Source of the DNA: Tubulanus polymorphus
Taxonomy: Eukaryota; Animalia; Nemertea
Assembly (NCBI RefSeq): GCF_964204645.1
Contig: NC_134026.1
Span: forward strand, 30,987,432 to 31,051,431
DNA length: 64,000 nt
Direction: 5' to 3'
A program made the translations under genes and the position numbers. Position 1 is the stretch's first letter, and each line of letters begins with the position of its first letter. The notes under the pieces were generated by a model that was given only the letters and a program-made list of their open reading frames with translations, was not told the origin of the DNA and made no database searches. Of the stretch, positions 1 through 53,958 are shown piece by piece.

Positions 1-109
1 ATCTGGAACTCTGCTAACTATCTGGAACTCTGCTGGGATTTTCTGATGTCATCATAGCTGCTAAATTCGTCATCAGTTATTGTCTGGTCATCTCATCTCA
101 TGGCTTCAT

Positions 110-3100
110 TTTGAAACATTCAGCTGGAAAGAAATGATATTTTTGAGGTGTACAATCCGTTCGAACATCTTATTATTTTACATGGAGAAGTTAAAATCAG
201 TCCCTGTCGTTTACAATTGCAATAATTGTATTATTTGATCAGTGATTGTCAATAAACCCCCGATTGATTAGTATTAGTAGCGTTAGTTAATCACTATTTA
301 AGACAGTGATCATTAACGTAGATTTCTCTGATACAAGATCAGTTAACGTTGATTTTATACAAAGTCCGCAGTGTCTTTAAAAAGACATTGAGATCCTACT
401 GAACCTCATTGTCCGAGGAGTTTTGATTTTCTTTTGACATTTTTCGGGGCTGTCTATTCTAAGACGATTTTTCTTTGATTAGGCGGGAAAAGGACTAATT
501 GGAGTTTGTTAAGTTGGGAGCTAATAGAGAGACTGGTAACGCCACCTATTGCTCAGGCCTTTTAGTCTCTGCGCTCTGATAGGAATAGACAGTACTAAAA
601 GGTGGATGTGCGAGTTCTAGGCGACTGGTAACGCCACCTATCGCTCGTCACCATCCTACCTTTAGCACTGAGAGTTGGGAGCTATAGGAAGGCTGGTAGC
701 GCCACCTATTATTGCTCAGGCACCATAGTCTCTGCGCACTTACCCGATGCTCTGATCAAAGTTTAATGTATTTTTAGTTTTAGGGGAGTTTTTGAGATCT
801 AAGAGCTATAGGAAGGCTGGTAGCGCCACCTATTGCTCGGACACCATCATCTCCGCACACTTACCCGAAGCTCTGATTGTAAGGTTTCAGTGATCTTGGG
901 AGAGTTTGAGAGGATGGTAGCACCACCTATTGGTCAGGAATGGTCTACTCTTTGTCTCTGATAAGGCTGAATGCGTGGCTACCACAAGTGGCCAAGTGTC
1001 AAGTCAAACACAACTCATTGTGATAAGTAATTACAGTCTCATGGATGAAACCAACTTCTTATTAATGCATTTCAAGAGGCACAAAATGTGACAGAACACT
1101 TTTAAACCAGTGTGCACTAAATATCAGTAAATCATATGAAAATATCAACTTGTCATCAAAAAGTGAAGCTTTGATTGAAAGAGATCTTGAAATGACTCTT
1201 TTTGAAATTGAGATTCCACAAACAAAGATTGAGCCTTCAGTAAGAAGACATTTCAAATATTGTCAAAACTCTTGATATTGAGAATCAAGTAACAAAGATT
1301 CACTGACAACACTTGATATATCAATATCTACTAATTGATGATATATCAAAATACTGATAGAAGTGACACAGTAATTAGCAACTAACATTCATAATTTCAC
1401 ATCAAAGGTTTCTCAAATTCTTTTTCATGGATGATATTATCAGCGACTGGCTCTGAAATTCTCGATATCCTACAGTTTTTTTCAGTCAATAAGAAAAACA
1501 CAAAAATTCTAATGAGTTTTTTCCGTCAAATAGAAAAAACAGAACTGAAGTTTTTCCGTCAAAATGAAAAACTCAATGTTAAGTGATACAGTAATTTTGT
1601 ATTTCAAGTTTCAGATGAAATAGCGACAACCATTATTCATGCAGGTTTCATCTCTCAAATATTATTAGTCTGGTTTTCTGAATTCAAACTTAAGGAGTAG
1701 CGCAGCAGCAGCAGCAGCAGCACCAAACAAACATAGAAATCACCAAATAATTTTGAGAAATTCTTTCACATTTTAACTGATGACATTCAGAATACAATAC
1801 ATGTGATTAAAACAAATATAATGATTATGCAAATGAGATTGGAGAGAGTGCCACAAATGAATCGGGACTTTCATCTAATACGAGCACGCTGAAAACAGAA
1901 ACATGTGTTAAATTGAATGAGGCAAACCATAATGTATAAGACACGAATGAGTTCGCGGTGGTCCTTTTTGACCGGTTAAACTGACTTAACAAAGAAAGAA
2001 TGGTGAAATGTTGAATTGTAAATTTGTACTCGGAGAAGTCCCAAAACGACACCTCATCACTCATTTATTTTATCTCTAACCTAATCTAAACCGGTGTAAA
2101 TATTGAACTCAACAGAACTTCACATAAAATGAGATTGAATCATTAAGATGAAATTTGAAATATACATCAAAATTACGATATTTTGATAAAGTGCCATTGA
2201 GTGTATAAAGGACTTCAGTCTAATACGAGTACAAACAAATTAACGGTAAAAAATATGTGAAAAATATGAATGAAGGTAAATTGATTGAAATCGAACCATT
2301 TATGCAGAGCATTACATAAAATAACTACTACATAAATAAGTTCACACTAGTGGCCTTGAATTAGACCAGATTGAAACTGATAAATCTTTAGAATTGTACT
2401 CGGACAAGTCCTGTATTAATTTCAAAAAAGGCACTTCATTTTTTTCTAGTTCCTTATCATTCTATTGACACTGGTATCACTGATATTTATTATCAGCAAA
2501 AATATATTAAACTAAATTTGAAGTGAAGTTTCAAAGCGTCAAAGCTTTTACTCACTACACTTTATTTCCAGGGATTTCTACTTTTGATTGTTTGGTGCAA
2601 ATTTAATCAATTAGAGTATTTTAAATAACCAGACATTTTTTCATTTTGACTGAAACCTGCTCCAAGAAGGTTGCGCAGATTTGTATATAATTGATAATAA
2701 ACAGATTAAATTTCTACTTAATTTCAATAATTCTATAAGATATTCATATCTATATAAATATCAATATTCAATATCGAAATTAATTTTTTCGACTTTACTT
2801 CAAATTGAATTCACTTACGGAATTTCATTTTTCAAAACAATGAATTCGAAGGTAAGAACTTCCCTTGATTTTCTGAGAAACAATAGTTTTGTATCGAAAT
2901 GATATTTCATGAACAAAGTGAGAAGGAAATTCAATCGATTCCTTTCAAAATAAAGATATAACTAACAAAGATGGAATGACGATTCTTTTACGATCAATTT
3001 TCACAAGATTCAGACGATTGACTAAGATTAAAATGAGATACTTCAATTGATTCAATTCAACTTTTTAACTTCACTTCTAAAAGCATTTGATCATCATCGA

Positions 3101-4880
3101 TATTGAAATATTGATGTATAAAAATATTGGATTTATTGTGAATCCTTTGCAAAATAGAGATTTCAGTAACTAAGATGGAATGATGATTTTTCTTCAGAAG
3201 ATCAAGATTTCACTATAAATTCTGTAAGTTGACCTTAATTTGCCTAACACTTACTGGGAATCCAGAACTTTCAAACAAGTAAAACTAAATATCAACTCCA
3301 CATCAAAATATGAGGCTTCATTAAAAGAGATCTCGATGATTCTTTTTTAAATTGAGATTGAGAAATCGGTAAGAAAATATTTGGAATATTGCAAATACTT
3401 AAGCGATTACGATTTCAAGTAAAAAAATACTGAACACCCCGAGATTTTACACATTTCTACAGAGACAATTAACAAATTAATTAAAAGAATTTATCTTTAA
3501 GAATTTATTTCAAATTGAGGAATAGGAACTTTGACGATAAAATGATTAAAACAGAGCTTGCGGAGATGATCTTATTACACGTAAAGGCACAAGACAAGCG
3601 TGCTCACCACTGAACCGATAGAACTTAAGTCTAATTAGTCAGTGATTAAACAGCGCTTGATTTCGTTATACAAAATACTATGAGAAACTAGTAACTATTT
3701 TAAACAGTTTCTAGTTTCTATAATACACCTTTCACAGAGCTCACAGAGACAATTTGAACTTTGTTAGTAGGATTTAGGGGGGCTAGCGATCGAACTAATG
3801 GTTATACACCTTCATATAATCTTTTCAGTCAAACAAACTGTAACAACTAATATTCTATATTATATTCTCTCCTATATTGAGTCACATTATTTCTCTATCA
3901 CAGAACTTTATAAAGATAAACGTTTAATACTTTTTGGGCTAGTGAGACTATGTTTAGTTAGTACATCTAGCCAAGTGAACTAGCGTCCACGCGACTAGTG
4001 ACTAAACAGCTTATAAAATACTATAACGAGACAACTTATTTTCAGACGCTGCAAGCGTGCTCAGCATTAGACCTAGAGAACAAGTCAACTAGGCTAAAAT
4101 ATACACCTTTTAACAGTTACACATTTCAGAACAGATACTGAATTCATAACAGCTTACAATGATTTAAGGCAAGCTCATTAAACCACTCAACATTTACAAG
4201 ATTATTACTGATCAATAACTATATCAAATTACTGCTTGGCAGATGTAATAAGAATTTACTAACACTTTTACAAAGCAAGTTCTTTCTATCTTAACACACG
4301 AGTAAAGCTAATATACGTTATATTAATTCCAGCACAGAGCTAACAGAGACAAGATCTTTTTTTGAACGATTTTGTTAGCAAAATTTTGGCCCAATAGAGG
4401 TTTTGTTATGAGGCTGATAAAGAGAAAAGTCGTTTTACGATCTTTTCCTTTAAGTTTTCTTATGTGAAGTAATGATTGTGAACTCGTGCGGTGCAGACAC
4501 AGAACATCGTTTAACGATTTTGTGTCATTTGGATGATTTTTTTTCTTTTCACTTTCAGTTAGATATTAAGCGTTAGAAATCTAAGTTTTTTGAGAGGAGC
4601 TTTTAAAAAAGCTTTTCGACACCTCATTCTTAGTGTATTTTTACACATTCTACTTTTGGGTTTTGTAAACCCTGTAGCGCTCCACTCTATCCTTTCTCTC
4701 CCGCAATAGAAAAATAAATCAAACTTAGCTTTTTTATATTGCGACAATCATCAGTGTGGATCAACTGCGAGGTAGTGTGGATCAACTGGTGGTTCCACGA
4801 TGCATCTGTTGGATTCTTCTGGTAGTATTTATGAACATGACTGTGCTAATTCCGCAGCATTACTTATCGTCTAGATTTAT
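110..4880. repeat. Macro tandem repeat copy 1 (~4.64 kb non-coding unit plus 127-bp junction segment)
   Basis: Sequence from 110 recurs at 4881 and 9701 (periods 4771 and 4820) with ~98-99% identity. Only short ORFs. Unit ends at ...gcgacaatcatca (4753), followed by junction gtgtggatcaactgcgaggtagtgtggatcaactgg...ctagatttat. Confidence 0.9.
516..960. repeat. Internal sub-repeat cluster: 5 diverged copies of a ~90-130 bp unit carrying the motif GGTA(A/G)CGCCACCTAT(T/C)GCTC
   Basis: Motif at ~536, 627, 692, 817, 907. Same block recurs in copies 2 and 3 at ~5287-5735 and ~10087-10535. Confidence 0.8.
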
Positions 4881-7800
4881 TTTGAAACATTCAGCTGGAA
4901 AGAAATGATATTTTTGAGGTGTACAATCCGTTCGAACATCTTATTATTTTACATGGAGAAGTTAAAATCCGTCCTTGTCGTTTACAATTGCAATAATTGT
5001 ATTATTTGATCAGTGATTGTCAATAAACCCCCGATTGATTAGTATTAGTAGCGTTAGTTAATCACTATTTAACACAGTGATCATTAACGTAGATTTCTCT
5101 GATACAAGATCAGTTAACGTTGATTTTATACAAAGTCCGCAGTGTCTTTAAAAAGACATTGAGATCCTACTGAACCTCATTGTCCGAGGAGTTTTGATTT
5201 TCTTTTGACATTTTTCGGGGCTGTCTATTCTAAGACGATTTTTCTTTGATTAGGCGGGAAAAGGACTAATTGGAGTTTGTTAAGTTGGGAGCTAATAGAG
5301 AGACTGGTAACGCCACCTATTGCTCAGGCCTTTTAGTCTCTGCGCTCTGATAGGAATAGACAGTACTAAAAGGTGGATGTGCGAGTTCTAGGCGACTGGT
5401 AACGCCACCTATCGCTCGTCACCATCCTACCTTTAGCACTGAGAGTTGGGAGCTATAGGAAGGCTGGTAGCGCCACCTATAATTGCTCAGGCACCATAGT
5501 CTCTGCGCACTTACCTGATGCTCTGATCAAAGTTTAATGTATTTTTAGTTTTAGGGGAGTTTTTGAAATCTAAGAGCTATAGGAAGGCTGGTAGCGCCAC
5601 CTATTGCTCGGACACCATCATCTCCGCACACTTACCCAAAGCTCTGATTGTAAGGTTTCAGTGATTTTGGGAGAGTTTGAGAGGATGGTAGCGCCACCTA
5701 TTGCTCAGGAATGGTCTACTCTTCGTCCCTGATAAGGCTGAATGCGTGGCTACCACAAGTGGCCAAGTGTCAAGTCAAACACAACTCATTGTGATAAGTA
5801 ATTACAGTCTCATGGATGAAACCAACTTCTTATTAATGCATTTCAAGAGGCACAAAATGTGACAGAACACTTTTAAACCAGTGTGCACTAAATATCAGTA
5901 AATCATATGAAAATATCAACTTGTCATCAAAAAGTGAAGCTTTGATTGAAAGAGATCTTGAAATGACTCTTTTTGAAATTGAGATTCCACAAACAAAGAT
6001 TGAGCCTTCAGTAAGAAGACATTTCAAATATCGTCAAAACTCTTGATATTGAGAATCTAGTGACAAAGATTCACTGACTGCACGTGATATATCAATATCT
6101 ACTAATTGACGATATATCAAAATACTGATAGAAGTGACACAGTAATTAAACTAACATTCATAATTTCACATCAAAAGTTTCTCAAATTCTTTTTCATGGA
6201 TGATATTATCAGAGGACTGGCTCTGAAATTCTCGATATCCTACAGTGTTTTTCAGTCAAAAAGAAAAACACAAAAATTCTAATGAGTTTTTTCCGTCAAA
6301 TTGAAAAAAACAGAATTGAAGTTTTTCCGTCAAAATGAAAAACTCAATGTTAAGTGATACAGTAATTTTGTATTTCAAGTTTCAGATGAAATAGCGACAA
6401 CCATCATTCATGCAGGTTTCATCTCTCAAATATTATTAGTCTGGTTTTCTGAATTCAAACTTAAGGAGTAGCGCAGCAGCAGCAGCAGCAGCAGCAGCAA
6501 ACAAACATAGAAATCACCAAATAATTTTGAGAAACTCTTTCACATTTTAACTGATGACATTCAGAATACAATACATGTGATTAAAACAAATATAATGATT
6601 ATGCAAATGAGAGTGGAGAGAGTGCCACAAATGAATCGGGACTTTCATCTAATACGAGCACGCTGAAAACAGAAACATGTATTAAATTGAATGAGGCAAA
6701 CCATTATGTATAAGACATGAATGAGTTCGCGGTGGTCCTTTTTGACCGGTTAAACTGACTTAACAAATAAAGAATGGTGAAATGTTGAATTGTAAATTTG
6801 TACTCGGAGAAGTCCCAAAACGACACCTCACCACTCATTTATTTTATCTCTAACCTAATGCTATTAATAGAACTCCACACAAAAAAACATAAAACAGCCT
6901 TAAATAAATGATATTGAATATGAATTTTACCTCAAAATACCTCAAAATTACTATATTTTGAAAAAGTGCCATTGAATGTTGAAGGACTTCAGTCTAATAC
7001 GAGTACAAACAAATTAACGGTAAAAATATATTCAAAATTTGAATGAAGGTAAATTGATTGAAATCGAACCATTTATGCAGAGCATTACATAAAATAACTA
7101 CTACATAAATAAGTTCACACTAGTGGCCTTGAATTAGACAAGATTGAAACTGATAAATCTTTAGAATTGTACTCGGACAAGTCCTGTATTTATTTCAAAA
7201 AAGGCACTTCATTTTTTTCTAGTTCCTTATCATTCTATTGACACTGGTATCACTGATATTTATTATCAGCAAAAATATATTAAACTAAATTTGAAGTGAA
7301 GTTTCAAAGCGTCAAAGCTTTTACTCACTACACTTTATTTCAAGGGATTTCTACTTTTGATTGTTTGGTGCAAATTTAATCAATTAGAGTATTTTAAATA
7401 ACCAGACATTTTTTCATTTTGACTGAAACCTGCTCCAAGAAGGTTGCGCAGATTTGTATTAAATTGATAATAAACTGATCAAATTTCTACTTAATGTCAA
7501 TAATTCTATAAGATATTCATATCTATATAAATATCAATATTCAATATCGATATTAATTTTTTTGACTTTACTTCAAATTGAATTCATTTACGGAATTTCA
7601 TTTTTCAAAACAATGAATTCGAAGGTAAGAACTTCCCTTGATTTTCTGAGAAACAATAGTTTTGTATCGAAATGATATTTCATGAACAAAGTGAGAAGGA
7701 AATTCAATCAATTCCTTTCAAAATAAAGATATAACTAACAAAGATGGAATGACGATTCTTTTACGATCAATTTTCACAAGATTCAGACGATTGACTAAGA

Positions 7801-9700
7801 TTATATTTACATTCGAAATTACATGAACAAAATGAGAAACTTCAATTGATTCAATTCAACTTTTTAACTTCACTTCTAAAAGCATTTGATCATCATCGAT
7901 ATTGAAATATTGATGTATAAAAATATTGGATTCATTGTGAATCTTTTGCAAAATAGAGATTTCAGTAACTAAGATGGAATGGTGAGTCTTCTTTAGAAGA
8001 TCAAGATTTCACTATAAATTCTCTAAGTTGATCTTAATTTACCTAACACTTACTGGGGAATCCAGAACTTTCAAACAAGTAAAACTAAATATCAACTCCA
8101 CATCAAAATATGAGGCTTCATTAAAAGAGATCTCGATGATTCTTTTTTAAATTGAGATTGAGAAATCGGTAAGAAAATATTTGGAATATTGCAAATACTT
8201 AAGCGATTACGATTTCAAGTAAAAAAATACTGAACACCCCGAGATTTTACACATTTCTACAGAGACAATTAACAAATTAATTAAAAGAATTTATTATTAA
8301 GAATTTATTTCAAACTGAGGAATAGGAACTTTGACGATAAAATGATTAAAACAGAGCTCGCGGAGATGATCTTATTACATGTAATGGCACAAGACAAGCG
8401 TGCTCACCACTGAACCGATAGAACTTAAGTCTAATTAGTCAGTGATTAAACAGCGCTTGATTTCGTTATACAAAATACTATGAGAAACTAGTAACTATTT
8501 TAAACAGTTTCTAGTTTCTATAATACACCTTTAACAGAGCTCACAGAGACAATTTGAACTTTGTTAGTAGGATTTAGGGGGGCTAGCGATCGAACTAATG
8601 GTTATACACCTTCATATAATCTTTTCAGTCAAACAAACTGTAACAACTAATATTCTATATTATATTCTCTCCTATATTGAGTCACATTATTTCTCTATCA
8701 CAGAACTTTATAAAGATGATGTTTAATACTTTTGGGCTAGTGAGACTATGTTTAGTTAGTACATCTAGCCAAGTGAACTAGCGTCCACGCGACTAGTGAC
8801 TAAACAGCTTATAAAATACTATAACGAGACAACTTATTTTCAGACGCTGCAAGCGTGCTCAGCATTAGACCTAGAGAACAAGTCAACTAGGCTAAAATAT
8901 ACACCTTTTAACAGTTACACATTTCAGAACAGATACTGAATTCAAAACAACTTACAATGATTTAAGGCAAGCTCATTAAACCACTCAACATTTACAAGAT
9001 TATTACTGATCAATAACTATATCAAATTACTGCTTGGCAGATGTAATAAGAATTTACTAACACTTTTACAAAGCAAGTTCTTTCTATCTTAACACATGAG
9101 TAAAGCTAATATACGTTATATTAATTCCAGCACAGAGCTAACAGAGACAAGATCTTTTTTTGAACGATTTTGTTAGCAAAATTTTGGCCCAATAGAGGTT
9201 TTGTTATGAGGCGATAAAGAGAAAAGTCGTTTTACGATCTTTTCCTTTAAGTTTTCTTATGTGAAGTAATGATTGTGAACTCGTGCGGTGCAGACACAGA
9301 ACATCGTTTAACGATTTTGTGTCATTTGGATGATTTTTTTTCTTTTCACTTTCAGTTAGATATTAAGCGTTAGAAATCTAAGTTTTTTGAGAGGAGCTTT
9401 TAAAAAAGCTTTTCGACACCTCATTCTTAGTGTATTTTTACACATTCTACTTTTGGGTTTTGTAAACCCTGTAGCGCTCCACTCTATCCTTTCTCTCCCG
9501 CAATAGAAAAATAAATCAAACTTAGCTTTTTTATATTGCGACAATCATCAGTGTGGATCAACTGCGAGGTAGTGTGGATCAACTGGTGGTTCCACGATGC
9601 ATCTGTTGGATTCTTCTGGTAGTATTTATGAACATGACTGTGCTAATTCTCCGTAGAATCTTCCGTTGGTCTCGCAGCATTAGTTATCGTCTAGATTTAT
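4881..9700. repeat. Macro tandem repeat copy 2 (plus 150-bp junction containing a ~35-bp extra insertion)
   Basis: Collinear with copy 1. Small indels and SNPs, e.g. (CAG)n length differs at ~6475. Confidence 0.9.
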
Positions 9701-12700
9701 TTTGAAACATTCAGCTGGAAAGAAATGATATTTTTGAGGTGTACAATCCGTTCGAACATCTTATAATTTTACATGGAGAAGTTAAAATCAGTCTCTGTCA
9801 TTTACAATTGCAATAATTGTATTATTTGATCAGTGATTGTCAATAAACCCCCGATTGATTAGTATTAGTAGCGTTAGTTAATCACTATTTAACACAGTGA
9901 TCATTAACGTAGATTTCTCTGATACAAGATCAGTTAACGTTGATTTTATACAAAGTCCGCAGTGTCTTTAAAAAGACATTGAGATCCTACTGAACCTCAT
10001 TGTCCGAGGAGTTTTGATTTTCTTTTGACATTTTTCGGGGCTGTCTATTCTAAGACGATTTTCTTTGATTAGGCGGGAAAAGGACTAATTGGAGTTTGTT
10101 AAATTGGGAGCTAATAGAGAGACTGGTAACGCCACCTATTGCTCAGGCCTTTTAGTCTCTGCGCTCTGATAGGAATAGACAGTACTAAAAGGTGGATGTG
10201 CGAGTTCTAGGCGACTGGTAACGCCACCTATCGCTCGTCACCATCCTACCTTTAGCACTGAGAGTTGGGAGCTATAGGAAGGCTGGTAGCGCCACCTATT
10301 ATTGCTCAGGCACCATAGTCTCTGCGCACTTACCTGATGCTCTGATCAAAGTTTAATGTATTTTTAGTTTTAGGGGAGTTTTTGAAATCTAAGAGCTATA
10401 GGAAGGCTGGTAGCGCCACCTATTGCTCGGACACCATCATCTCCGCACACTTACCCAAAGCTCTGATTGTAAGGTTTCAGTGATTTTGGGAGAGTTTGAG
10501 AGGATGGTAGCACCACCTATTGCTGAGGAATGGTCTACTCTTCGTCTCTGATAAGGCTGAATGCGTGGCTACCACAAGTGGCCAAGTGTCAAGTCAAACA
10601 CAACTCATTGTGATAAGTAATTACAGTCTCATGGATGAAACCAACTTCTTATTAATGCATTTCAAGAGGCACAAAATGTGACAGAACACTTTTAAACCAG
10701 TGTGCACTAAATATCAGTAAATCATATGAAAATATCAACTTGTCATCAAAAAGTGAAGCTTTGATTGAAAGAGATCTTGAAATGACTCTTTTTGAAATTG
10801 AGATTCCACAAACAAAGATTGAGCCTTCAGTAAGACGACATTTCAAATATCGTCAAAACTCTTGATATTGAGAATCTAGTGACAAAGATTCACTGACTGC
10901 ACGTGATATATCAATATCTACTAATTGACGATATATCAAAATACTGATAGAAGTGACACAGTAATTAAACTAACATTCATAATTTCACATCAAAAGTTTC
11001 TCAAATTCTTTTTCATGGATGATATTATCAGAGGACTGGCTCTGAAATTCTCGATATCCTACAGTGTTTTTCAGTCAAAAAGAAAAACACAAAAATTCTA
11101 ATGAGTTTTTTCCGTCAAATAGAAAAAACAGAATTGAAGTTTTTCCGTCAAAATGAAAAACTCAATGTTAAGTGATACAGTAATTTTGTATTTCAAGTTT
11201 CAGATGAAATAGCGACAACCATCATTCATGCAGGTTTCATCTCTCAAATATTATTAGTCTGGTTTTCTGAATTCAAACTTAAGGAGTAGCGCAGGAGTAG
11301 CGCAGCAGCAGCGGCAGCAGCACCAAACAAACATAGAAATCACCAAATAATTTTGAGAAACTCTTTCACATTTTAACTGATGACATTCAGAATACAATAC
11401 ATGTGATTAAAACAAATATAATGATTATGCAAATGAGATTGGAGAGAGTGCCACAAATGAATCGGGACTTTCATCTAATACGAGCACGCTGAAAACAGAA
11501 ACATGTGTTAAATTGAATGAGGCAAACCATTATGTATAAGACATGAATGAGTTCGCGGTGGTCCTTTTTGACCGGTTAAACTGACTTAACAAATAAAGAA
11601 TGGTGAAATGTTGAATTGTAAATTTGTACTCGGAGAAGTCCCAAAACGACACCTCACCACTCATTTATTGTATCTCTAACCTAATGCTATTAATAGAACT
11701 GTACACAAAAAAAACATAAAACAGCCTTAAATAAATGATATTGAATATGAATTTTACCTCAAAATACCTCAAATTACTATATTTTGAAAAAGTGCCATTA
11801 AATGTTGAAGGACTTCAGTCTAATACGAGTACAAACAAATTAACGGTAAAAATATATTCAAAATTTGAATGAAGGTAAATTGATTGAAATCGAACCATTT
11901 ATGCAGAGCATTACATAAAATAACTACTACATAAATAAGTTCACACTAGTGGCCTTGAATTAGACCAGATTGAAACTGATAAATCTTTAGAATTGTACTC
12001 GGACAAGTCCTGTATTTATTTCAAAAAAGGCACTTCATTTTTTTCTAGTTCCTTATCATTCTATTGACACTGGTATCACTGATATTTATTATCAGCAAAA
12101 ATATATTAAACTGAATTTGAAGTGAAGTTTCAAAGCGTCAAAGCTTTTACTCACTACACTTTATTTCAAGGGATTTCTACTTTTGATTGTTTGGTGCAAA
12201 TTTAATCAATTAGAGTATTTTAGATAACCAGACATTTTTTCATTTTGACTGAAACCTGCTCCAAGAAGGTTGCGCAGATTTGTATTAAATTGATAATAAA
12301 CTGATCAAATTTCTACTTAATGTCAATAATTCTATAAGATATTCATATCTATATAAATATCAATATTCAATATCGAAATTAATTTTTTTGACTTTACTTC
12401 AAATTGAATTCATTTACGGAATTTCATTTTTCAAAACAATGAATTCGAAGGTAAGAACTTCCCTTGATTTTCTGAGAAACAATAGTTTTGTATCGAAATG
12501 ATATTTCATGAACAAAGTGAGAAGGAAATTCAATCAATTCCTTTCAAAATAAAGATATAACTAACAAAGATGGAATGACGATTCTTTTACGATCAATTTT
12601 CACAAGATTCAGACGATTGACTAAGATTATATTTACATTCGAAATTACATGAACAAAATGAGATACTTCAATTGATTCAATTCAACTTTTTAACTTCACT

Positions 12701-14379
12701 TCTAAAAGCATTTGATCATCATCGATATTGAAATATTGATGTATAAAAATATTGGATTCATTGTGAATCTTTTGCAAAATAGAGATTTCAGTAACTAAGA
12801 TGGAATGGTGAGTCTTCTTTAGAAGATCAAGATTTCACTATAAATTCTCTAAGTTGATCTTAATTTACCTAACACTTACTGGGGAATCCAGAACTTTCAA
12901 ACAAGTAAAACTAAATATCAACTCCACATCAAAATATGAGGCTTCATTAAAAGAGATCTCGATGATTCTTTTTTAAATTGAGATTGAGAAATCGGTAAGA
13001 AAATATTTGGAATATTGCAAATACTTAAGCGATTACGATTTCAAGTAAAAAAATACTTAACACCCCGAGATTTTACACATTTCTACAGAGACAATTAACA
13101 AATTAATTAAAAGAATTTATCATTAAGAATTTATTTCAAATTGAGGAATAGGAACTTTGACGATAAAATGATTAAAACAGAGCTCGCGGAGATGATCTTA
13201 TTACACGTACTGGCACAAGACAAGCGTGCTCACCACTGAACCGATAGAACTTAAGTCTAATTAGTCAGTGATTAAACAGCGCTTGATTTCGTTATACAAA
13301 ATACTATGAGAAACTAGTAACTATTTTAAACAGTTTCTAGTTTCTATAATACACCTTTCACAGAGCTCACAGAGACAATTTGAACTTTGTTAGTAGGATT
13401 TAGGGGGGCTAGCGATCGAACTAATGGTTATACACCTTCATATAATCTTTTCAGTCAAACAAACTGTAACAACTAATATTCTATATTATATTCTCTCCTA
13501 TATTGAGTCACATTATTTCTCTATCACAGAACTTTATAAAGATAAACGTTTAATACTTTTTGGGCTAGTGAGACTATGTTTAGTTAGTACATCTAGCCAA
13601 GTGAACTAGCGTCCACGCGACTAGTGACTAAACAGCTTATAAAATACTATAACGAGACAACTTATTTTCAGACGCTGCAAGCGTGCTCAGCATTAGACCT
13701 AGAGAACAAGTCAACTAGGCTAAAATATACACCTTTTAACAGTTACACATTTCAGAACAGATACTGAATTCAAAACAACTTACAATGATTTAAGGCAAGC
13801 TCATTAAACCACTCAACATTTACAAGAATATTACTGATCAATAACTATATTAAATTACTGCTTGGCAGATGTAATAAGAATTTACTAACACTTTTACAAA
13901 GCAAGTTCTTTCTATCTTAACACACGAATAAAGCTAATATACGTTATATTAATTCCAGCACAGAGCTAACAGAGACAAGATCTTTTTTTGAACGATTTTG
14001 TTAGCAAAATTTTGGCCCAATAGAGGTTTTGTTATGAGGCTGATAAAGAGAAAAGTCGTTTTACGATCTTTTCCTTTAAGTTTTCTTATGTGAAGTAATG
14101 ATTGTGAACTCGTGCGGTGCAGACACAGAACATCGTTTAACGATTTTGTGTCATTTGGATGATTTTTTTTCTTTTCACTTTCAGTTAGATATTAAGCGTT
14201 AGAAATCTAAGTTTTTTGAGAGGAGCTTTTAAAAAAGCTTTTCGACACCTCATTCTTAGTGTATTTTTACACATTCTATTTTTGGGTTTTGTAAACCCTG
14301 TAGCGCTCCACTCTCTCCTTTCTCTCCCGCAATAGAAAAATAAATCAAACTTAGCTTTTTTATATTGCGACAATCATCA
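9701..14379. repeat. Macro tandem repeat copy 3 (array ends at 14379 without a junction segment)
   Basis: Collinear with copies 1 and 2. Diverges after caatcatca at 14379. Confidence 0.9.
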
Positions 14380-14384
14380 CTGGG

Positions 14385-14680
14385 AGGTAGTGCTCTCAGT
14401 AGTTCTAGTAGTAGTAGTTCATTTTCTAGGAGTTCATCTTTTAGTTCTAATAGTTCATTGGACCCTAGTAGTGCCGTAGTTACTAGTAGTAGTTCATTTT
14501 CTAGGAGTTCATCTTTTAGTTCTAATAGTTCATTGGACCCTAGTAGTGACGTAGTTACTAGTAGTAGTTCATCTTCTAGGAGTTCATCTTCTAGTTAGAA
14601 TAGTTCATTGGACCCTAGTAGTGCTGTGGTTTCTAGTAGTAGTTCATCTTCTAGTAGTTCTAGTAATTAGTTCATCTTCT
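14385..14680. repeat. Minisatellite, ~75-bp unit x ~3.7 (agtagttcatYttctaggagttcatcttttagttctaatagttcattggaccctagtagtgNcgtagttactagt)
   Basis: Direct tandem copies visible. The Ser-rich ORF at 14365-14598 is an artefact of it. Confidence 0.85.
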
Positions 14681-15059
14681 CGATGTTCTAGGTCGTGGCT
14701 GGTCGACAACTTGGTTCATCTTGCATTTGATGCATTCTTCTGACGGTCTCCATAAAAAAACACTTTCTGCGGCTGGAAATAAAGAAAATAGTAGATAATT
14801 TCTTGGAATCAGAATGTTAACGTTTACAATATGAAGCAAAGAAAAAAATATAGTTCAATCTCTGCGAGTAGAAACATGGATTATTACAACAAAATGAAAA
14901 TAAATTGGGAATACAAAAAATTACGATTTATGAAAATGATTCTATGAAATTGTTATCAAAGTGTTCACAACAACTTTATTAGATGCAATGTTACTGGATA
15001 TAAGACAATTACAATCAATCCATAATTTAGAATTCAAACTTTCTCACCATGAAAACGGA

Positions 15060-15420
15060 TGTTCTTGTTCTTGTTTTATTTAATTCAGCCCAGCACATCA
15101 GGACAGCATACAGGCAGCACGGTGGCTCAGACATGAGTGCGGCGATTTAGACAGGGCGCCAACTGCTCTCAAACCTATTGACGCGTTACCGGATTAGGTT
15201 GGGAGACTATAGGCAACGGGCTGGCATTTTTACAGTGACCAATCAGAGAGAGCATCGTCCTTGAATAGATTCACCGCGCGAGGTCGAGGTTGACTCGTTC
15301 CGCTCTGGCCGACTCGAAACCCTTCACCGCCGCCCGTTCCGCTAATAAACACCGGACTCGAACAGACCCTTCCACATTCATAGTGTATTTCATTATTACG
15401 ATAGAAAGAATTAATCAAAT
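15060..15420. promoter_or_regulatory. GC-rich island with CCAAT box (gtgaccaatcag at ~15237) between the macro-repeat and the SNRNP27-like gene
   Basis: Local GC far above the AT-rich background. CCAAT/Y-box motif present. B-box-like GTTCGAGTCC on the minus strand (~15352-15361) but no foldable tRNA. Confidence 0.25.
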
Positions 15421-16009
15421 CTTAGAGATCTTAAAATCTAATTCTTAAAGTGGCCCGCCCGTCTCTCACTCGTGACAAAAAAGCATTTTTTCAACTGGAT
15501 GTGGTTTAGACATTTTAAAACCCGATTTTCAATTAACTCAGATTTAAGACTGCACTTGGAATCAAGCCTCCAATCGGCTCCGAGAGGCAATATTATATCT
15601 CAGACAGTAGCGAGAGAGTCTGACTGATGTCATTTCGAATTCAAATTCTGGTGTCATCTCTGAATCCTCAAAGTCCCTGACTCGTTGATTCGTGATCAAA
15701 CTCAATTAGATTCACTCTCTTATAGTCCCGAGAGGTCTCGGAGCCCGCGCCTCCTCAAAATTGAGAAAATTTTGAAAATTTGCCTGCTCAAATGGCATAT
15801 TGATACCGGACCCATACGAAACTAGAAAAATATGGAAATTGTATCGACGGCGTAATCGATTCATTTTAAAAATAATATAGATCAATCTTTCGGACAAATC
15901 AGCTGATGTAAAATAAGTCTCAGTGGGGCTCGAATCGCCAAAAGTTTGTACAGGGCTGTCGAGACTGTGATTAAGAAATAACCGATTCAATATTCAATTC
16001 AATTCAATA

Positions 16010-16046
16010 ATGGGTCGCAGTAGAAGTCGTTCACCAAATCGTAGAG
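16010..16046 (+). CDS. SNRNP27: SNRNP27-like (U4/U6.U5 tri-snRNP 27 kDa protein), exon 1/6: MGRSRSRSPNRR
   Basis: ATG followed by RS-dipeptide repeats. Donor G|gtaaaa. Phase consistent with exon 2. Confidence 0.65.
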
Positions 16047-16262
16047 GTAAAAATCATTCGATTCTCAGCGTTCTGGTTCTCGATTCAAATGCAAGATGAA
16101 AATTCAGTTTAATTCAATGATTTTGTGAAACTTTTGCGTTAATTAAAGTCTTTGATCGCGCTTAAAATTGCAGAGAAAATGAGTATAATTTTAGTTTGAT
16201 AGTCGACCGCTAGGCGATAGAATAGTCGATTTGTTTTCATTTGTTTCGTCGCCTTTTTGTAG

Positions 16263-16328
16263 AAACACGAAGAAGATCGAGATCAAGAGAAAGGGATCGA
16301 AAACGTGACAGAGACGTTAGAGATAGAG
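16263..16328 (+). CDS. SNRNP27: SNRNP27-like exon 2/6 (RS/RD-rich)
   Basis: Acceptor ttttgtag, donor G|gtactt. Encodes ETRRRSRSRERDRKRDRDVRDR. Confidence 0.6.
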
Positions 16329-16868
16329 GTACTTGACTGTTTCATCTGAGAGTGAGAAATTGCCGAAATTCACAACTATATCCATAAAAAATGCAAAAAT
16401 AGCTACAATGTTACTGAAAGTGAAAGAAAGCTTGTGGGAATGGAGAAGGCTCAAATAACAATATGCTTTTTAAATTTTAGAATTATCTCCAGTAGTTTTC
16501 GAGATATCGCAAATTTAAGTTTGAAAATTTTGAACGAAAAGTGTCTTCATGTTTCAATACGCTTAAACTGTGATCTAAAAGTCACTACTTGCTATTTACC
16601 ACCACCTCCTCGTGTGCATGCTGTGTGCTGGTCTTTTTGAAACGATTGTAGTCATCAATCAGTATCCAGATGCTTGATGCATAATTCTCATGCTGATGCA
16701 TAAAGATTTTATATATTTCATGACACTGAACCCAGGAAATGAACTGTAGGAGTTCAAAGAGTTAACTCTAACTCACAACTGGAAAACTGGTCCAAAAAGA
16801 GTGGGTTCAAACAACTGCTAGAAATAAAATAAATCGGTGTAGAAATGTTTTCTCATTATATTTTACAG

Positions 16869-17267: not shown

Positions 17268-17470
17268 GGTCTAAAACCTTCAGACCGGTCTTAAGTTCTA
17301 AGTTTTGTTATAAAACTAGAATGAGCTTAGACTGGTCTTAAGTTGCCTTAGATTGGTTATAGAACCAAAATGAGCTTAGACTGGTCTTAAGTTGTTAGAT
17401 TGGTTATAGAACCAAAATGAACTTAGACTGGTCTTAAGTTGTTAGATTGGTTAGAATTAGACTGGTCTTG
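17268..17470. mobile_element. MITE family A cluster (core gaccagtcttaagttgttagattggttatagaaccaaaatgagcttag) in SNRNP27 intron 4
   Basis: Same element at 26385-26470, 36462-36785, 47935-48140 and 53800-53940. Confidence 0.7.
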
Positions 17471-19366: not shown

Positions 19367-19684
19367 GTTTTATTTGATATATTCAATTCACTGAATTCTG
19401 GGTGGTCACTGACCTGACAAAACTTGAGGAATCAGAAAAAAACGGGGACAATTTGGGGAATTCAAATAATGTTATTGTTCTTGATCAATACTTGATTCAA
19501 TGAAAAATATATGAATTGTAAGATTTTGAATCTTGAAATTTCTCTGATTCACTCCTGGAATTGTGTTATAACGTGGACAAATCAGCGAAAACTCAGGGGA
19601 TTTAGGTAACTGGGTGGAAAGTGGCCTCACAGGAATGTAATGAACGTTTTAAGATAGTTTCAATTGTTAATTGTATTTTTGTAG

Positions 19685-20244
19685 GATGTGTTGATGTTTG
19701 GGAGCCGAAAGTATTACGTTCTGCAGCCGGTGCTCATTTCAAAATTCCTCTAATCGATAATCTCGAATGGTCGACGATATCCGCTTATATCCGACAAAAT
19801 TCGGCGGTGTTCCTCGCGGATATCACTAAAAACAACGACGGAGACGAAATCAATCGCGATCAATTACTAGCGGAACTCGAGAATGAGGAAAACACGTACG
19901 AGATTCCGGATTCGGGAATTGATAATGATAACGAAATTCGGTCGGAAAACAACGAGGACGATTCATCGTCCGAAACTGAATTTCATAAACACCTCGCTAT
20001 TTCAAATAAACCGTATTACGCTATAAACTACGCTAGGAACGATAGCGTAACGTTAGTGATCGGTGGTGAAACTGAAGGCATCAGTAGCGCCGCCTATAAA
20101 CTCGTATTTGATAGATTCGGCGAGAAAGTCTTTATTCCGATGATTAAAGGAATCGATAGTTTGAATTCAGCGATCGCCTGCAGCGTCATCGCCTTCGAGA
20201 TTAAGAGACAATTTCAACAATTGAAAGATAATGAAAACGATTAG
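19685..20244 (+). CDS. MRM3: MRM3-like exon 4/4 (SpoU motifs 2 and 3: LVIGGETEGIS, IPMIKGIDSLNSAIACSVIAFE) with acidic insertion
   Basis: Acceptor tttttgtag. ORF to TAG at 20244. SpoU C-terminal knot motifs present. Confidence 0.8.
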
Positions 20245-21236
20245 GAACAATTCACCGACTCTTCCTTCGATTCAACTCTTCCTTCGATTCAACTCTTTCT
20301 TCGATTCAACTCTGACATCTTCGCAGAATTAGAGAATATATAAATATACAATGGATATTGATTGAGATATTGTTCTGTATTTATTGAGCACCTTTTACTA
20401 CAATACTTCAATGTATGATATGCAAATATATCATTAAGCCAAATTTACAAATGCGATTGTTACTAATATAAAATTGATGAAATCAATTGGATCAATATTA
20501 ACAGTCAATATTTGTTGCTATAGAGATTGTTTGAATATTGAGCAGATTTTGGTGGGCGTTGTGTTGCTAATAGTGATGATTATTTTCACATTTCTCATGT
20601 TTTGATTTGAAATTAACATAAAAACGTGCAGTACAACTTAATTGAATCGTCGCATTATTGAATTTGTCTTGAATTCAATCCGATTTAAGTGTTTATTTGG
20701 ATAAGTCGTCAACATGTCCGAACTACGACAAGATAACCAAGTTTGCTGGTGGCGGAAAAGTTCCGTTTTAATAATCTCCTAATGTAAACAGTTAATATAT
20801 AATTCTATAAAGATGAAACAAACAAACAGCAGTTTGATTCAAATGGACGCTTCCTCTCGGTACAAACGTGTTACAAAAAAATCGATACAAATACAAGTAC
20901 GGTACTTGAGTCTAAAATATCAACTTTAACAGTAAAATAATTCACTATAAAACTGATTTAGCACCTTTATTTCATACTTTCTCAGTTGACTGTGCCGCCT
21001 GCCACAAAGCCAATCTTAGGATTATCATGCGTCACCGAGCAAGGATTATCATTTTATCACATTACCTTTGGATTACCTTTTCCAATTCATGAGATAATGA
21101 CCGATTGACTGGCCAGCAATCTACACGCCCCCTCACAGAGATACAACAGTACCGATCGGCGATCTGAAGCAAGCGCACAGTCTAACGTACAAATCTATAT
21201 TTACAAAAACCGGTTTTAATAAAACAAAATGAGAAT

Positions 21237-23820: not shown

Positions 23821-23932
23821 CGGAACTGGATCCTAAACTGTGGAACTGGATCCTGAACTGTGGTACTGGATCCTGAACTGTGGAACTGGATCCTGAACTG
23901 TGGAACTGGATCCTGAACTGTGGAACTGGATC
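23821..23932. repeat. 22-bp tandem array (gaactgtggaactggatcct x ~5) of family B in carboxypeptidase intron 1
   Basis: Direct tandem copies. Same unit forms the larger array at 33757-34217. Confidence 0.8.
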
Positions 23933-28725: not shown

Positions 28726-28890
28726 GGGATCATTCATTTATTACGTACGCATAAAATTTGAATTTTTCTACCCACCCCTCCCCCTCTGTACGCAAAATCG
28801 GCCATTTTTTCATATACATTAAGCATTACAGTACGCAATTGCACTGACCCCTCCCCCTCCCCTAATGCGTACGTAATAAATGAATGACCC
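28726..28890. mobile_element. Palindromic MITE family C (~165 bp, TIR gggatcattcatttattacgtacgca)
   Basis: Perfect ~26-bp terminal inverted repeats. Second copy at 50809-50973 in the SLC2A13-like intron. Confidence 0.8.
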
Positions 28891-28936
28891 TAAATCAGTT
28901 AACCTACAATTACTATCTATTTTCACACTTATTTAC

Positions 28937-30422: not shown

Positions 30423-30462
30423 CTAGAAATGTACATCACATTACATCATCAGTACGCACAGG

Positions 30463-32495
30463 TAGGCTCACCTAGATAGGCACAGGTAGGCTTATCTAGA
30501 TAGACACTGATAGGCTTATCTATCTAGATAGGCACAGGTAGGCTTATCTAGATAGGTACAGGTAGGCTTATCTAGATAGGTACAGGTAGGCTTATCTAGA
30601 TAGGCACAGGTAGGCTTATCTAGATAGATAGGCACAGGTAGGCTTATCTAGATAGGTACAGGTAGGCTTATCTAGATAGGCACAGGTAGGCTTACCTAGA
30701 TAGGCACTGATAGGCTTATCTATCTAGATAGGCACAGGTAGGCTTATCTAGATAGGTACAGGTAGGCTTATCTAGATAGGCACAGGTAGGCTTACCTAGA
30801 TAGGCACTGATAGGCTTATCTATCTAGATAGGCACAGGTAGGCTTATCTAGATAGGCACAGGTAGGCTTACCTAGATAGGCACTGATAGGCTTATCTATC
30901 TAGATAGGCACAGGTAGGCTTACCTAGATAGGCACAGGTAGGTTTATCTATCTAGATAGGCACAGGTAGGTTTATCTAGATAGGCACAGGTAGGCTTATC
31001 TAGATAGACACTGATAGGCTTATCTATCTAGATAGGCACAGGTAGGCTTATCTATCTAGATAGGCACAGGTAGGCTTACCTAGATAGGCACAGGTAGGCT
31101 TATCTAGATAGACACTGATAGGCTTATCTATCTAGATAGGCACAGGTAGGCTTATCTAGATAGGCAGAGGTAGGCTTATCTAGATAGACACTGATAGGCT
31201 TATCTATCTAGATAGGCACAGGTAGGCTTATCTAGATAGGCACTGATAGGCTTATCTATCTAGATAGGCACAGGTAGGCTTATCTAGATAGGTACAGGTA
31301 GGCTTATCTAGATAGGCACAGGTAGGCTTACCTAGATAGGCACTGATAGGCTTATCTATCTAGATAGGCACAGGTAGGCTTATCTAGATAGGTACAGGTA
31401 GGCTTATCTAGATAGGCACAGGTAGGCTTACCTAGATAGGCACTGATAGGCTTATCTATCTAGATAGGCACAGGTAGGCTTATCTAGATAGGTACAGGTA
31501 GGCTTATCTAGATAGGCACAGGTAGGCTTACCTAGATAGGCACTGATAGGCTTATCTATCTAGATAGGCACAGGTAGGCTTATCTAGATAGGTACAGGTA
31601 GGCTTATCTAGATAGGCACAGGTAGGCTTATCTAAATAGACACTGATAGCCTTATCTATCTAGATAGGCACAGGTAGGCTTATCTAGATAGGTACAGGTA
31701 GGCTTATCTAGATAGGCACAGGTAGGCTTACCTAAATAGACACTGATAGGCTTATCTATCTAGATAGGTACAGGTAGGCTTATCTAGATAGGCACAGGTA
31801 GGCTTATCTAGATAGACACTGATAGGCTTATCTATCTAGATAGGCACAGGTAGGCTTATCTAGATAGGTACAGGTAGGCTTATCTAGATAGGCACAGGTA
31901 GGCTTATCTAGATAGGCACAGGTAGGCTTATCTAGATAGGTACAGGTAGGCTTATCTAGATAGGCACAGGTAGGCTTATCTAGATAGGCACAGGTAGGCT
32001 TATCTAGATAGGTACAGGTAGGCTTATCTAGATAGGTACAGGTAGGCTTATCTAGATAGGTACAGGTAGGCTTATCTAGATAGGTACAGGTAGGCTTATC
32101 TAGATAGGCACAGGTAGGCTTATCTAGATAGATAGGCACAGGTAGGCTTATCTAGATAGGTACAGGTAGGCTTATCTAGATAGGCACAGGTAGGCTTATC
32201 TAGATAGATAGGCACAGGTAGGCTTATCTAGATAGGTACAGGTAGGCTTATCTAGATAGGCACAGGTAGGCTTATCTAGATAGGCACAGGTAGGCTTATC
32301 TAGATAGATAGGCACAGGTAGGCTTATCTAGATAGGTACAGGTAGGCTTATCTAGATAGGTACAGGTAGGCTTATCTAGATAGGCACAGGTAGGCTTATC
32401 TAGATAGGCACAGGTAGGCTTATCTAGATAGATAGGCACAGGTAGGCTTATCTAGATAGGCACAGGTAGGCTTATCTAGATAGGCACAGGTAGGT
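30463..32495. repeat. Giant minisatellite: ~2.03 kb of a 24-bp unit ataggcacaggtaggcttatctag, ~85 copies, in BDP1 intron 4
   Basis: Variants ataggtacagg..., atagacactgataggcttatctatctag. ORF 31828-32139 (YLDKPTCT...) is an artefact. Confidence 0.95.
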
Positions 32496-33592: not shown

Positions 33593-33756
33593 CTGGAAAA
33601 CAAAAAATGCAAAATATGAAATTTTGGGAATTCTCTTTCACGCGCTTTCTTATCATAGAAACTAACTTTGTACATGTAATTTCACTAGATTTCAAAGTTT
33701 AAAGTCCACAGTCGATTCAAGTATAAGCCATTTTGAAGAGTAATTTGAGACATCAG

Positions 33757-34217
33757 GAACTGAATTCTGAACTGTGGAACTGGACCCTGAGCTGTGGAAT
33801 TGAGTCCAGAACTGTGGAACTGTACCCAGAACTGTGGACCTGGATCCAGAACTGTGGAACTGGACCCTGAACTGTGGAACTGGACCCTGAACTGTGGAAT
33901 TGAGTCCAGAACTGTGGAACTGAGTTCAGAACCGTGGAACTGAGACCAGAACTTTGGAACTGAGTTCAGAACCGTGGAACTGAGTTCAGAACCGTGGAAC
34001 TGAGTCCAGAACTGTGGAACTGAGTCCAGAACTGTGGAACTGAGTTCAGAACTGTGGAACTAGTTCCAGAACTGTGGAACTTGATCCAGAACTGTGGAAC
34101 TGGGTTCAGAACTGTGGAACTGTATCCAGAACTGTGGAACTGGACTCAGAACTGTGGAACTGGGTCCTGAACTGTGGAACTGGACCCTGAACTTTGGAAC
34201 CCTGAACTGTGGAACCT
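33757..34217. repeat. 22-bp satellite array (gaactgtggaactggaYcctga x ~21) in BDP1 intron 2
   Basis: Family B unit tandemised. Copies diverge (ggacc/gagtc/gagtt variants). Confidence 0.9.
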
Positions 34218-47934: not shown

Positions 47935-48140
47935 TTGGGGCCAGTTCCACAGTCATGTTTTGGCTACAAGACTAACTTCTATAACCGATCTAGCAACTTA
48001 AGACCAGTCTAAGCTCATTTTAGTTCAATCACCAATATAACAACTTAAGACCAGTCTAAGCTCATTTTGGTTATATATCCAACCTAACAACTTAAGATGA
48101 TAAGTCTTAAGATTTAAGACCACTTTTTGGACTTTTGGTC
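47935..48140. mobile_element. MITE family A copy
   Basis: ggggccagttccacagtcatgtttt... aacttaagaccagtctaagctcatttt x2 ... cttaagatttaagaccact. Confidence 0.7.
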
Positions 48141-48667: not shown

Positions 48668-48788
<121 letters not shown>

Positions 48789-53940: not shown

Positions 53941-53958
53941 CCGGTTTATATAACTTAC

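Follow-up and report, generated by a model that had tools for sequence, protein, structure and literature searches.

The question raised by this locus is how three nearly identical copies of a long non-coding unit came to lie in tandem at the start of a stretch of 64 kb of DNA (the window, i.e. the whole stretch that was analysed), and whether they have any function there. The array is likely to be young and of local origin, a low-copy tandem duplication in which about 4.8 kb of repeat-rich, non-coding DNA was copied and then expanded by unequal crossover. Within the window it consists of three copies (U) in the same orientation, arranged head-to-tail in a constant register and joined by two junctions (J), with the kilobase-scale unit uninterrupted in tandem. 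The copies, junctions and flanks are located as follows.

Positions 1–107, no strand assigned: left flank L, cut by the window edge and opening with two 19-bp direct repeats (ATCTGGAACTCTGCT..).
Positions 108–4753, plus strand: copy U1, 4646 bp, the most divergent copy, with 81 substitutions against U2 and U3 jointly.
Positions 4754–4878, plus strand: junction J1, 125 bp, which lacks a 23-bp segment found in J2.
Positions 4879–9550, plus strand: copy U2, 4672 bp, a chimera with a U3-like 5' and central part and the last ~600 bp U1-like.
Positions 9551–9698, plus strand: junction J2, 148 bp.
Positions 9699–14379, plus strand: copy U3, 4681 bp, 99.1% identical to U2.
Positions 14380–14700, no strand assigned: right flank R, with the first 13 nt common to J, adjoining a 75-bp minisatellite.

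The copy and junction coordinates bear out the U-J-U-J-U layout proposed in an earlier sequence-only reading, and also its three tandem copies of about 98–99% identity with start-to-start periods of 4771 and 4820 bp, the ungapped identities being 97.8% for U1/U2, 97.8% for U1/U3 and 99.1% for U2/U3. The junctions, given there as 127–150 bp, are real, with measured lengths of 125 and 148 bp. The count of "exactly three" agrees with the copies that are visible but is overstated, because the window opens only 107 bp to the left of U1, and the copy number used here is that of the copies visible in the window. No further copies of U or J are found in the other 50 kb of the window. The unit is AT-rich with a GC content of 29–37%, and indels of 1, 2, 7, 11, 23 and 26 bp are dispersed across U and J. 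The heterozygosity of marine invertebrates typically ranges over values that include about 2%, and the divergence of ~2% between U1 and U2/U3 lies within that range, as would be the case if heterozygous haplotypes or collapsed reads had been stitched together in tandem by the assembly. Such an artefact is highly improbable, as the window contains no Ns or gaps, the two junctions are defined and nearly identical, copy-specific indels are found all along U1, U2 and U3, and the chimeric pattern described below has a biological explanation.

Nothing in the array points to a gene, a transposon or a known RNA, and it is non-coding. The longest ORF is 79 aa, in agreement with the previous claim of none above 80 aa, and the ORFs are not kept between the copies, the 79-aa ORF of U1 being shortened to 44 aa in U2. 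A Pfam search with 38 frames of the array gave nothing below E = 0.03, no Rfam family reached its gathering score over the array, and no tRNA genes were detected in the array by ARAGORN, so that the ORF, Rfam, tRNA and Pfam searches uphold the statement that no rRNA, 5S, snRNA, SL-RNA or histone sequence is recognizable. The best Rfam signal is one histone stem-loop lookalike per unit with 20.9 bits against a cut-off of 34, and a histone array was rejected, the lookalike being sub-threshold and a histone ORF absent nearby. Two presumptive tRNA-derived SINE heads on the minus strand near 3600 and 4070 were suspected by eye, and ARAGORN reported nothing at these positions. Metagenome scans with the core of the sub-repeats (described below) and with the J-to-U boundary gave 0 matches, and four repeat cores searched as text strings had no match in the literature. 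Open Ser-rich or Leu/Glu-rich frames of tens of codons are found in the flanks, and a repetitive protein gene could be imagined in which L, J and R serve as short exons and U is a duplicated intron. However, no frame of R is free of stop codons, all frames are shifted by the 23-bp indel between J1 and J2, Pfam gives no match, and inspection of the J borders by eye showed no convincing splice sites, which makes an exon–intron arrangement extremely unlikely.

The order of events can be read from the variant sites. There are 81 sites of type 23|1, where U1 differs from U2 and U3, versus 19 and 20 private sites, and the variants fit the simple tree (U1,(U2,U3)). The 81 sites of type 23|1 make U2 resemble U3 over roughly positions 300–4150 of the unit, whereas the last 593 bp of U2 are U1-like, with 0 sites of type 23|1 versus 5 of type 12|3. 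The ratio of 23|1 to 12|3 sites is 81:14 up to position ~4160 and 0:5 beyond that point (Fisher p = 1.5e-4, and p = 7e-4 once the hypervariable block is left out). This chimerism of U2 is the signature of one unequal crossover that took two copies to three. A weaker second departure from the prediction of one crossover is seen in the first 195 bp of the unit, where the ratio is 1:3 (Fisher p = 0.01). Because the middle copy is a chimera, a history of tandem duplication followed by unequal crossing-over, as suggested previously, is directly supported. The evidence put forward at the same time for gene conversion is weak, as the variants quoted as "mosaic" are each either private to one copy or tree-like and show no mosaicism; the gatgatgtttaat variant is found in copy 2 alone, and the changes at ~6050 and ~10850 reflect the (U1,(U2,U3)) tree. 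One short region in U1 stands apart from this pattern.

Positions 2080–2180, no strand assigned: hyper-divergent patch in which U1 is only ~62% identical to U2/U3.

The U1-specific substitutions are concentrated around it, with 32 of the 81 located at 2086–2270, and no template for either version of the patch is found in the window. A patch of ~100 bp with 62% identity between U1 and U2/U3 therefore calls for at least one event beyond one crossover, either a conversion from elsewhere or a complex replacement.

The two junctions are 100% identical over the first 99 bp and 96% identical over the last 26 bp, and differ by one 23-bp indel and one substitution. J starts with a local 11-nt duplication, in which GTGTGGATCAACTG occurs twice, plus a 13-mer from the right flank, J positions 12–24 (CTGCGAGGTAGTG) being the same as the first 13 nt of R at 12/13 positions. 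By our own estimate the chance of such a boundary-anchored match is ~1e-4 to 1e-3, and the 13-mer common to J and R would mark the breakpoint of the first duplication. A template search of the window gave no source for the remaining ~100 bp of J. A local alignment of L 19–85 to J1 50–119 shows ~65% identity, which is borderline, with a score of 15.5 versus a shuffle maximum of 15.0 (0/500 shuffles reach it). If the joint is read as right-flank followed by left-flank sequence, the 13-mer matches R at 12/13 positions, whereas L and the remainder of J are just ~65% similar. The description of J as "filler DNA" is consequently appropriate for the ~100 bp without a detectable source in the window but not for its start, which is a local duplication with a right-flank 13-mer, and the claim that J is absent from both outer ends of the array holds in part, given the nucleotides shared between R and J 12–24 and the borderline similarity of L to J 50–119. 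Had the body of J been taken over from the left flank in the first duplication, an identity of ~98% with L would be expected, and the observed value of ~65% counts against the two-step history given next.

The local duplication that we favour would have taken place in two steps. In the first, which we infer from the sequence, a segment that begins with U and includes the first 13 nt of the right flank would have been duplicated head-to-tail, with a product in which the joint J of ~125–150 bp consists of the 13-mer, the short GTGTGGATCAACTG duplication and ~100 bp for which no source was identified. Minisatellite-like DNA is present in both flanks and would be a likely fragile substrate for the breakpoints; in R a minisatellite of 75 bp with 3.4 copies (14409–14660) abuts the array. 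More than 20 other tandem arrays are found in the window, and the region is duplication-prone because the window is full of mini- and microsatellites. In the second step, which the variant pattern shows, the copies first diverged by about 1–2%, and in a single unequal crossover the right copy of one chromatid then recombined with the left copy of the other at about position 4150–4200 of the unit. The product was a middle copy with the 5' and central part of the right copy and the 3' end of the left copy, together with a second, identical J. Private changes of ~0.4% in each of U2 and U3, and the 23-bp indel in J, arose afterwards.

The three copies might instead form the right end of a macrosatellite that is longer and older, extends to the left of the window and is subject to concerted evolution, with L as a diverged outer junction. 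The window opens 107 bp before U1, L opens with a doubled ~19-mer and J with a doubled 14-mer, the similarity of L to J is borderline, and U1 as the outermost visible copy is also the most divergent, as expected of array edges. The identity falls abruptly from ~99% to ~65% at position 108, however, with no gradual decay, and the first 195 bp of U1 are no more divergent than the rest of U1. Moreover L is not J, indicating that any further copy must be joined differently. We regard a longer array as unlikely and retain the local duplication as the preferred explanation.

The unit is itself composed of smaller repeats, and all the motifs listed in the sequence-only reading are present. A GCCACCTAT core recurs in five sub-repeats per unit, ttttccgtcaaa is found as three repeats of ~35 bp, the (CAG)n is variable, and there are two pairs of inverted motifs along with the cacagagc..acagagacaa motifs. 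The larger elements are the following.

Positions 495–975 (U1), 5266–5746 (U2) and 10085–10565 (U3), plus strand: sub-repeat block, five degenerate sub-repeats with the core CTGGTARCGCCACCTATYGCTC.
Positions 1863–2043, no strand assigned: MITE-like element A, with imperfect terminal inverted repeats GGGACTT..CGAGCAC / GTACTCG..AAGTCCC.
Positions 2209–2412, no strand assigned: MITE-like element B, a diverged paralogue of A.

Elements A and B are homologous along their length and constitute two diverged copies of a ~190-bp MITE-like element, and the paired inverted motifs are the ends of these two copies. The inverted motifs were also considered as an RNA structure, which was rejected with fold z = +0.55 for element A and -1.55 for element B. 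Other ~190-bp dispersed repeats are located inside the unit (5911–5986 versus 8087–8159). Such debris, together with the sharp boundaries between unit and flank, would be in line with U being a non-autonomous transposable element or a composite, either inserted twice nearby or amplified as a tandem transposon array. This is nevertheless a most improbable origin, as no TSD, TIR, LTR, poly-A or Helitron 5'-TC or 3'-CTRR ends are detected at the unit (best TIR score 7), U2 and U3 show no TSD at the unit termini ATTTTGAAAC... and ...CAATCATCA, Pfam finds no transposon protein domains, and the other 50 kb of the repeat-rich window contain no dispersed copy or fragment of U. J1 and J2 are in addition identical, indicating that J was copied along with U and is not independent target DNA.

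The sub-repeats have periods of 68–124 bp and are all in one orientation, with 5 per unit and 15 in all. The core is the 22-bp sequence CTGGTARCGCCACCTATYGCTC; the listed core GCCACCTAT has 15 matches in the window, 13 inside the array and 2 outside, versus 0.2 expected by chance. An nhmmer profile of the sub-repeat matched the 15 copies and nothing else in the window, and in the most diverged sub-repeats only the core still aligns by self-BLAST, with 90–96% identity. The 22-bp core is thus conserved far better than its flanks, which hints at constraint on a putative binding site and as such is an observation against neutrality. The array is located 1.6 kb upstream of an SNRNP27-like (housekeeping) gene in a mollusc-like (lophotrochozoan) genome, and the neighbouring genes are ordinary as judged by Pfam (SNRNP27, SpoU methylase, Fz, Sugar_tr). 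Two intronless proteins from the window had no exact match in look-ups, and in a homology search DPH4 reached 51% identity at most, the top named matches being from molluscs. A region at ~15200, in the SNRNP27 promoter, was by eye taken for a sub-repeat lookalike, and the nhmmer profile gave it no support even at E <= 10. A core-related site, ATCGCCACCTAGTG, is found at 58861 within promoter-like DNA.

These sub-repeats might be read as a functional multi-site binding platform, i.e. an insulator/boundary or a promoter-proximal regulator, with 15 CTCF-like sites amplified by the duplication. The core persists where the flanks of the sub-repeats no longer align, it is far more frequent than expected and has the related site at 58861, and its reverse complement, GCAATAGGTGGCGCT, agrees at 13/15 positions with the CTCF consensus CCASYAGRKGGCRSY. 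CTCF is present in spiralians, where its motifs mark promoters or TAD borders (PMC7854359, PMC10658181). The 2 mismatches, on the other hand, are no better than those of sites scattered in the window, and the one at 37022 has only 1. The sub-repeat block has a GC content of 0.43–0.48 and a CpG o/e of 0.5–0.8 versus 1.1–1.6 at the neighbouring promoter, and is not CpG-island-like, three copies at 1–2% divergence are too young to reveal selection, and aligning the sub-repeats by their core involves some circularity. A binding platform is thus a decidedly doubtful reading, and the array, an ordinary structural feature, most likely has no sequence-specific function and would behave as a neutral structural variant.

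Taken at face value the array matters little, but it offers a clean, datable case of the step from two copies to three via one unequal crossover in a tandem-repeat-rich lineage, and could be of use as a structural-variant marker or in testing assembly quality. Many tandem arrays are likewise described for bivalve genomes, which contain scattered short satellite arrays and tandem-repeat-containing elements of MITE or Helitron type (PMC8268682, PMC3879986). The window resembles them in being filled by short arrays, some within dispersed elements, and the unit in holding MITE-like copies and a sub-repeat block. In the bivalve arrays the monomers measure tens to hundreds of bp and many genomic loci are involved, whereas the 4.8-kb monomer here is at a single locus within the window and has no transposon termini.

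The mammalian CTCF-binding macrosatellites DXZ4 (a 3-kb unit in 12–100 copies), ICCE and FIRRE, and the 7.3-kb tRNA VNTR at 1q23.3 (PMC3287207, PMC6125249, PMC6985041, PMC4041453), have in common with the array a kilobase-scale non-coding tandem unit and same-orientation motifs resembling a CTCF site. The array differs from the DXZ4 type in that it has three visible copies, against the tens to hundreds, polymorphic in number, of the DXZ4/D4Z4 macrosatellites, is AT-rich and not CpG-rich, carries a loose candidate CTCF motif with 2 mismatches and resides in a spiralian host, and the GC-/CpG-rich unit with a promoter or CTCF element that is a trait of the DXZ4/D4Z4 macrosatellites is not seen here. 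By this analogy the 15 sub-repeats with the 22-bp core CTGGTARCGCCACCTATYGCTC would be a spiralian counterpart of CTCF-bound DXZ4/FIRRE/ICCE, i.e. a strong directional boundary or anchor beside a housekeeping promoter at an early stage of expansion, which we find very unlikely. Only if the core were a bound insulator or architectural site would the array matter more, as little evidence for boundary elements of the CTCF type has so far come from spiralians (PMC10658181).

The array is also comparable to low-copy segmental duplications expanded by unequal crossing-over, such as the two-to-three-copy expansions of gene clusters, with which it shares copies arranged head-to-tail, a novel joint that is identical between successive copies, a middle copy that is a chimera with a single switch point, and a divergence of 1–2% between the copies. 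It departs from the classic gene-cluster expansions in two respects, namely that no gene is duplicated, the content being non-coding and repeat-rich, and that its joint carries the ~100 bp for which no source was identified.

The array is best read as a tandem duplication of non-coding DNA, young and low in copy number, that a single unequal crossover enlarged in a repeat-prone region; structural features of this kind are well known. Repeat finding and MAFFT alignment give a unit, U, that occurs three times head to tail within the window, which is about 36% GC and contains zero Ns:

108–4753, copy U1, 4646 bp
4754–4878, junction J1, 125 bp
4879–9550, copy U2, 4672 bp
9551–9698, junction J2, 148 bp
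9699–14379, copy U3, 4681 bp

The start-to-start periods are 4771 and 4820 bp, and the ungapped identity in the MAFFT alignment is 97.8% for U1/U2, 97.8% for U1/U3 and 99.1% for U2/U3, and on repeat finding and alignment the coordinates, periods, identities and internal landmarks of the sequence-only reading are correct. The count of three holds for the window and not for the locus, since only 107 bp of the window precede U1. J1 and J2 agree at every position of their first 99 bp; beyond that, a 23-bp indel sets them apart, and their last 26 bp contain one substitution.

No ORF of the array exceeds 79 aa, and the longest one is shortened to 44 aa in U2. Pfam was scanned with 38 open frames, 36 of them stop-to-stop frames of at least 40 aa from one unit and the junctions and two from the right flank, and no frame had a match beyond chance; the best E-values, 0.03–0.1, are at chance level because 38 frames were queried. 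Indels of 1, 2, 7, 11, 23 and 26 bp are dispersed across U and J, and there is therefore no protected reading frame. A protein-coding unit is rejected on these grounds, the ORFs being at most 79 aa and truncated between copies, with frame-breaking indels and Pfam at chance. An RNA gene is likewise rejected, since Rfam at gathering thresholds gives no family in the whole window, ARAGORN finds no tRNA, and the sole match in a permissive Rfam scan of one unit is a histone stem-loop look-alike (20.9 bits, cut-off 34) that has no histone ORF near it. A transposon identity for U is rejected because terminal inverted repeats, target-site duplications, a poly-A tail and Helitron-type ends are all missing from the unit, and neither U nor J has an additional copy in the other 50 kb of the window. 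The paired inverted motifs in the unit are the termini of two diverged paralogous copies of a MITE-like element of about 190 bp, and a structured RNA at these motifs is rejected (z = +0.55 and -1.55 vs shuffled sequence).

There are 121 substitution sites in the copies; U1 differs from both U2 and U3 at 81, 19 are private to U3, 20 to U2, and one is different in all three, which is the pattern of a plain (U1,(U2,U3)) tree. Two "mosaic" examples had been taken as gene conversion, and they turn out to be one tree-consistent class of sites and one cluster private to copy 2, so that neither speaks for conversion. The site patterns are uneven along the unit, and in the last 593 bp U1-specific sites are absent and five sites set U3 apart from U1 and U2, vs 81:14 elsewhere (Fisher p = 1.5e-4, or 7e-4 without a hypervariable block). 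This switch to a U1-like state is a prediction of one unequal crossover. The starting state would have been L-Ua-J-Ub-R, where L and R are the left and right flanks, and Ub of one chromatid would have paired out of register with Ua of the other; an exchange near position 4150–4200 would then give L-Ua-J-[Ub 5' part + Ua 3' part]-J-Ub-R. By this crossover the first J would be copied to give the second, and the observed likeness of J1 and J2 agrees. J contains an 11-nt local duplication and then a 13-mer, CTGCGAGGTAGTG, that agrees with the start of the right flank at 12 of its 13 positions, and the right breakpoint of the first duplication is therefore placed 13 nt into R. The breaks of the first duplication probably fell in minisatellite-like flanks. 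Tandem duplication followed by unequal crossing-over, the main history proposed from the sequence, has direct support in the chimeric middle copy and is largely right.

The remaining ~100 bp of J have no source within the window, and the left flank is about 65% similar to J, which is borderline against shuffles; either J is true filler, or the minisatellite-like flank has altered fast since the duplication. A patch of about 100 bp (2080–2180 in U1 vs 6854–6960 in U2 and 11680–11786 in U3) shows only ~62% identity of U1 to the other two copies, vs 98–99% in the rest of the unit, and no template for either version was found in the window. The first 195 bp of the unit also depart from the one-crossover model (p = 0.01). 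These three features require at least one further event beyond the one crossover, e.g. ectopic conversion or a complex replacement.

An SNRNP27 gene on the plus strand (Pfam 1.4e-28) lies 1.6 kb downstream of the array's end; it is followed by a SpoU-type methyltransferase gene and, further right, by two Fz-domain genes and a sugar-transporter gene. The promoter region at 15000–16500 has a CpG o/e of 1.1–1.6 and nothing comparable is found in the array; values of 1.8–2.3, unusually high against the window mean of 0.82, occur at 19501–20250, in the terminal exon of the SpoU-methylase-like gene. The Fz (Frizzled cysteine-rich) genes form an intronless tandem pair (45208–45777 and 46231–46893; Pfam 3.7e-21 and 5.5e-30) with 86% identity over the last 146 bp, each encoding a small secreted protein with a signal peptide, the Fz domain and a C-terminal coiled-coil-like tail, and the second has no exact match in the protein collection. 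The best named relatives of a DPH4-like protein encoded in the window are from molluscs, with at most 51% identity, which points to a mollusc-like lophotrochozoan source.

More than 20 further tandem arrays lie elsewhere in the window, e.g. 24-bp x 81, 20-bp x 22, 38-bp x 9.6 and 47-bp arrays within dispersed elements, and a 75-bp minisatellite immediately adjoins the right end of the array, so tandem duplication is a general tendency of the region. This agrees with the pattern reported for bivalve genomes (PMC8268682, PMC3879986). The 24-bp unit (GCACAGGTAGGCTTATCTAGATAG) is repeated ~81 times in a 2-kb minisatellite at 30456–32494, with higher-order periods of 76 and 100 bp, and this minisatellite overlaps the beginning of a minus-strand ORF of 129 aa that looks spurious; the 38-bp repeat at 42868–43231 gives a spurious 135-aa ORF, also on the minus strand (WCDTAGAAWS... 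repeats). Related 20-bp (GGAACTGGATCCTGAACTGT) and 44-bp arrays at 23822–23932, 33756–34200 and 53292–53469, three separate loci, thus constitute a dispersed family of short arrays. Arrays of 47/48 bp (AGACTGGTCTTAAGTT...) lie in both orientations at 17282–17453, 36482–36730 and 47994–48097, with inverted matches also at 53791–53942, and an intron of the SNRNP27-like gene contains one of the arrays; they resemble a mobile element that has dispersed and carries tandem repeats internally, as reported for bivalve MITE or Helitron-type elements. An 88-nt inverted repeat (62824–62911 / 62950–63037, 95% complementary) has a 38-nt spacer and hence is a foldback or MITE-like hairpin, and both its arms are weakly matched by an AT-rich run of 31 nt in the array unit (8280–8310). 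An inverted pair of 121 nt, 92% complementary and 22 kb apart (28775–28895 / 50806–50926), is probably two copies of another dispersed repeat. Pure long microsatellites are (ATG)40 at 48666–48786 and (CTGC)42 at 56757–56923.

The one hint of function in the array comes from its sub-repeats. Each unit contains five degenerate sub-repeats in one common orientation (495–975 in U1), and the most diverged pairs align just over a 24–31-bp core (CTGGTARCGCCACCTATYGCTC) with 90–96% identity. The motif GCCACCTAT has 15 matches in the window vs 0.2 expected, 13 of them inside the array, and a profile derived from the sub-repeats has no matches in the window beyond the sub-repeats themselves. The reverse complement GCAATAGGTGGCGCT agrees at 13 of 15 positions with the CTCF consensus (CCASYAGRKGGCRSY). 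Scattered sites in the window outside the array match this consensus equally well or better, and the sub-repeat block is not CpG-island-like. Two isolated sites resemble both the core and the consensus, one at 58861–58875 (ATCGCCACCTAGTGT) in CpG-rich promoter-like DNA, and one at 44685–44699 (CCGATAGGTGGCGGC), ~520 bp upstream of the first Fz-domain gene. The resemblance is a lead, and it is very improbable that the sub-repeats would act as functional CTCF-like sites. The array would gain importance only if it proved to be a long array of variable copy number, were shared with related species or bound an architectural protein. Spiralians have CTCF, and in these animals its motifs are markers of promoters or of TAD borders (PMC7854359, PMC10658181). 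Macrosatellites of mammals, DXZ4 among them, bind CTCF (PMC3287207, PMC6125249, PMC6985041).
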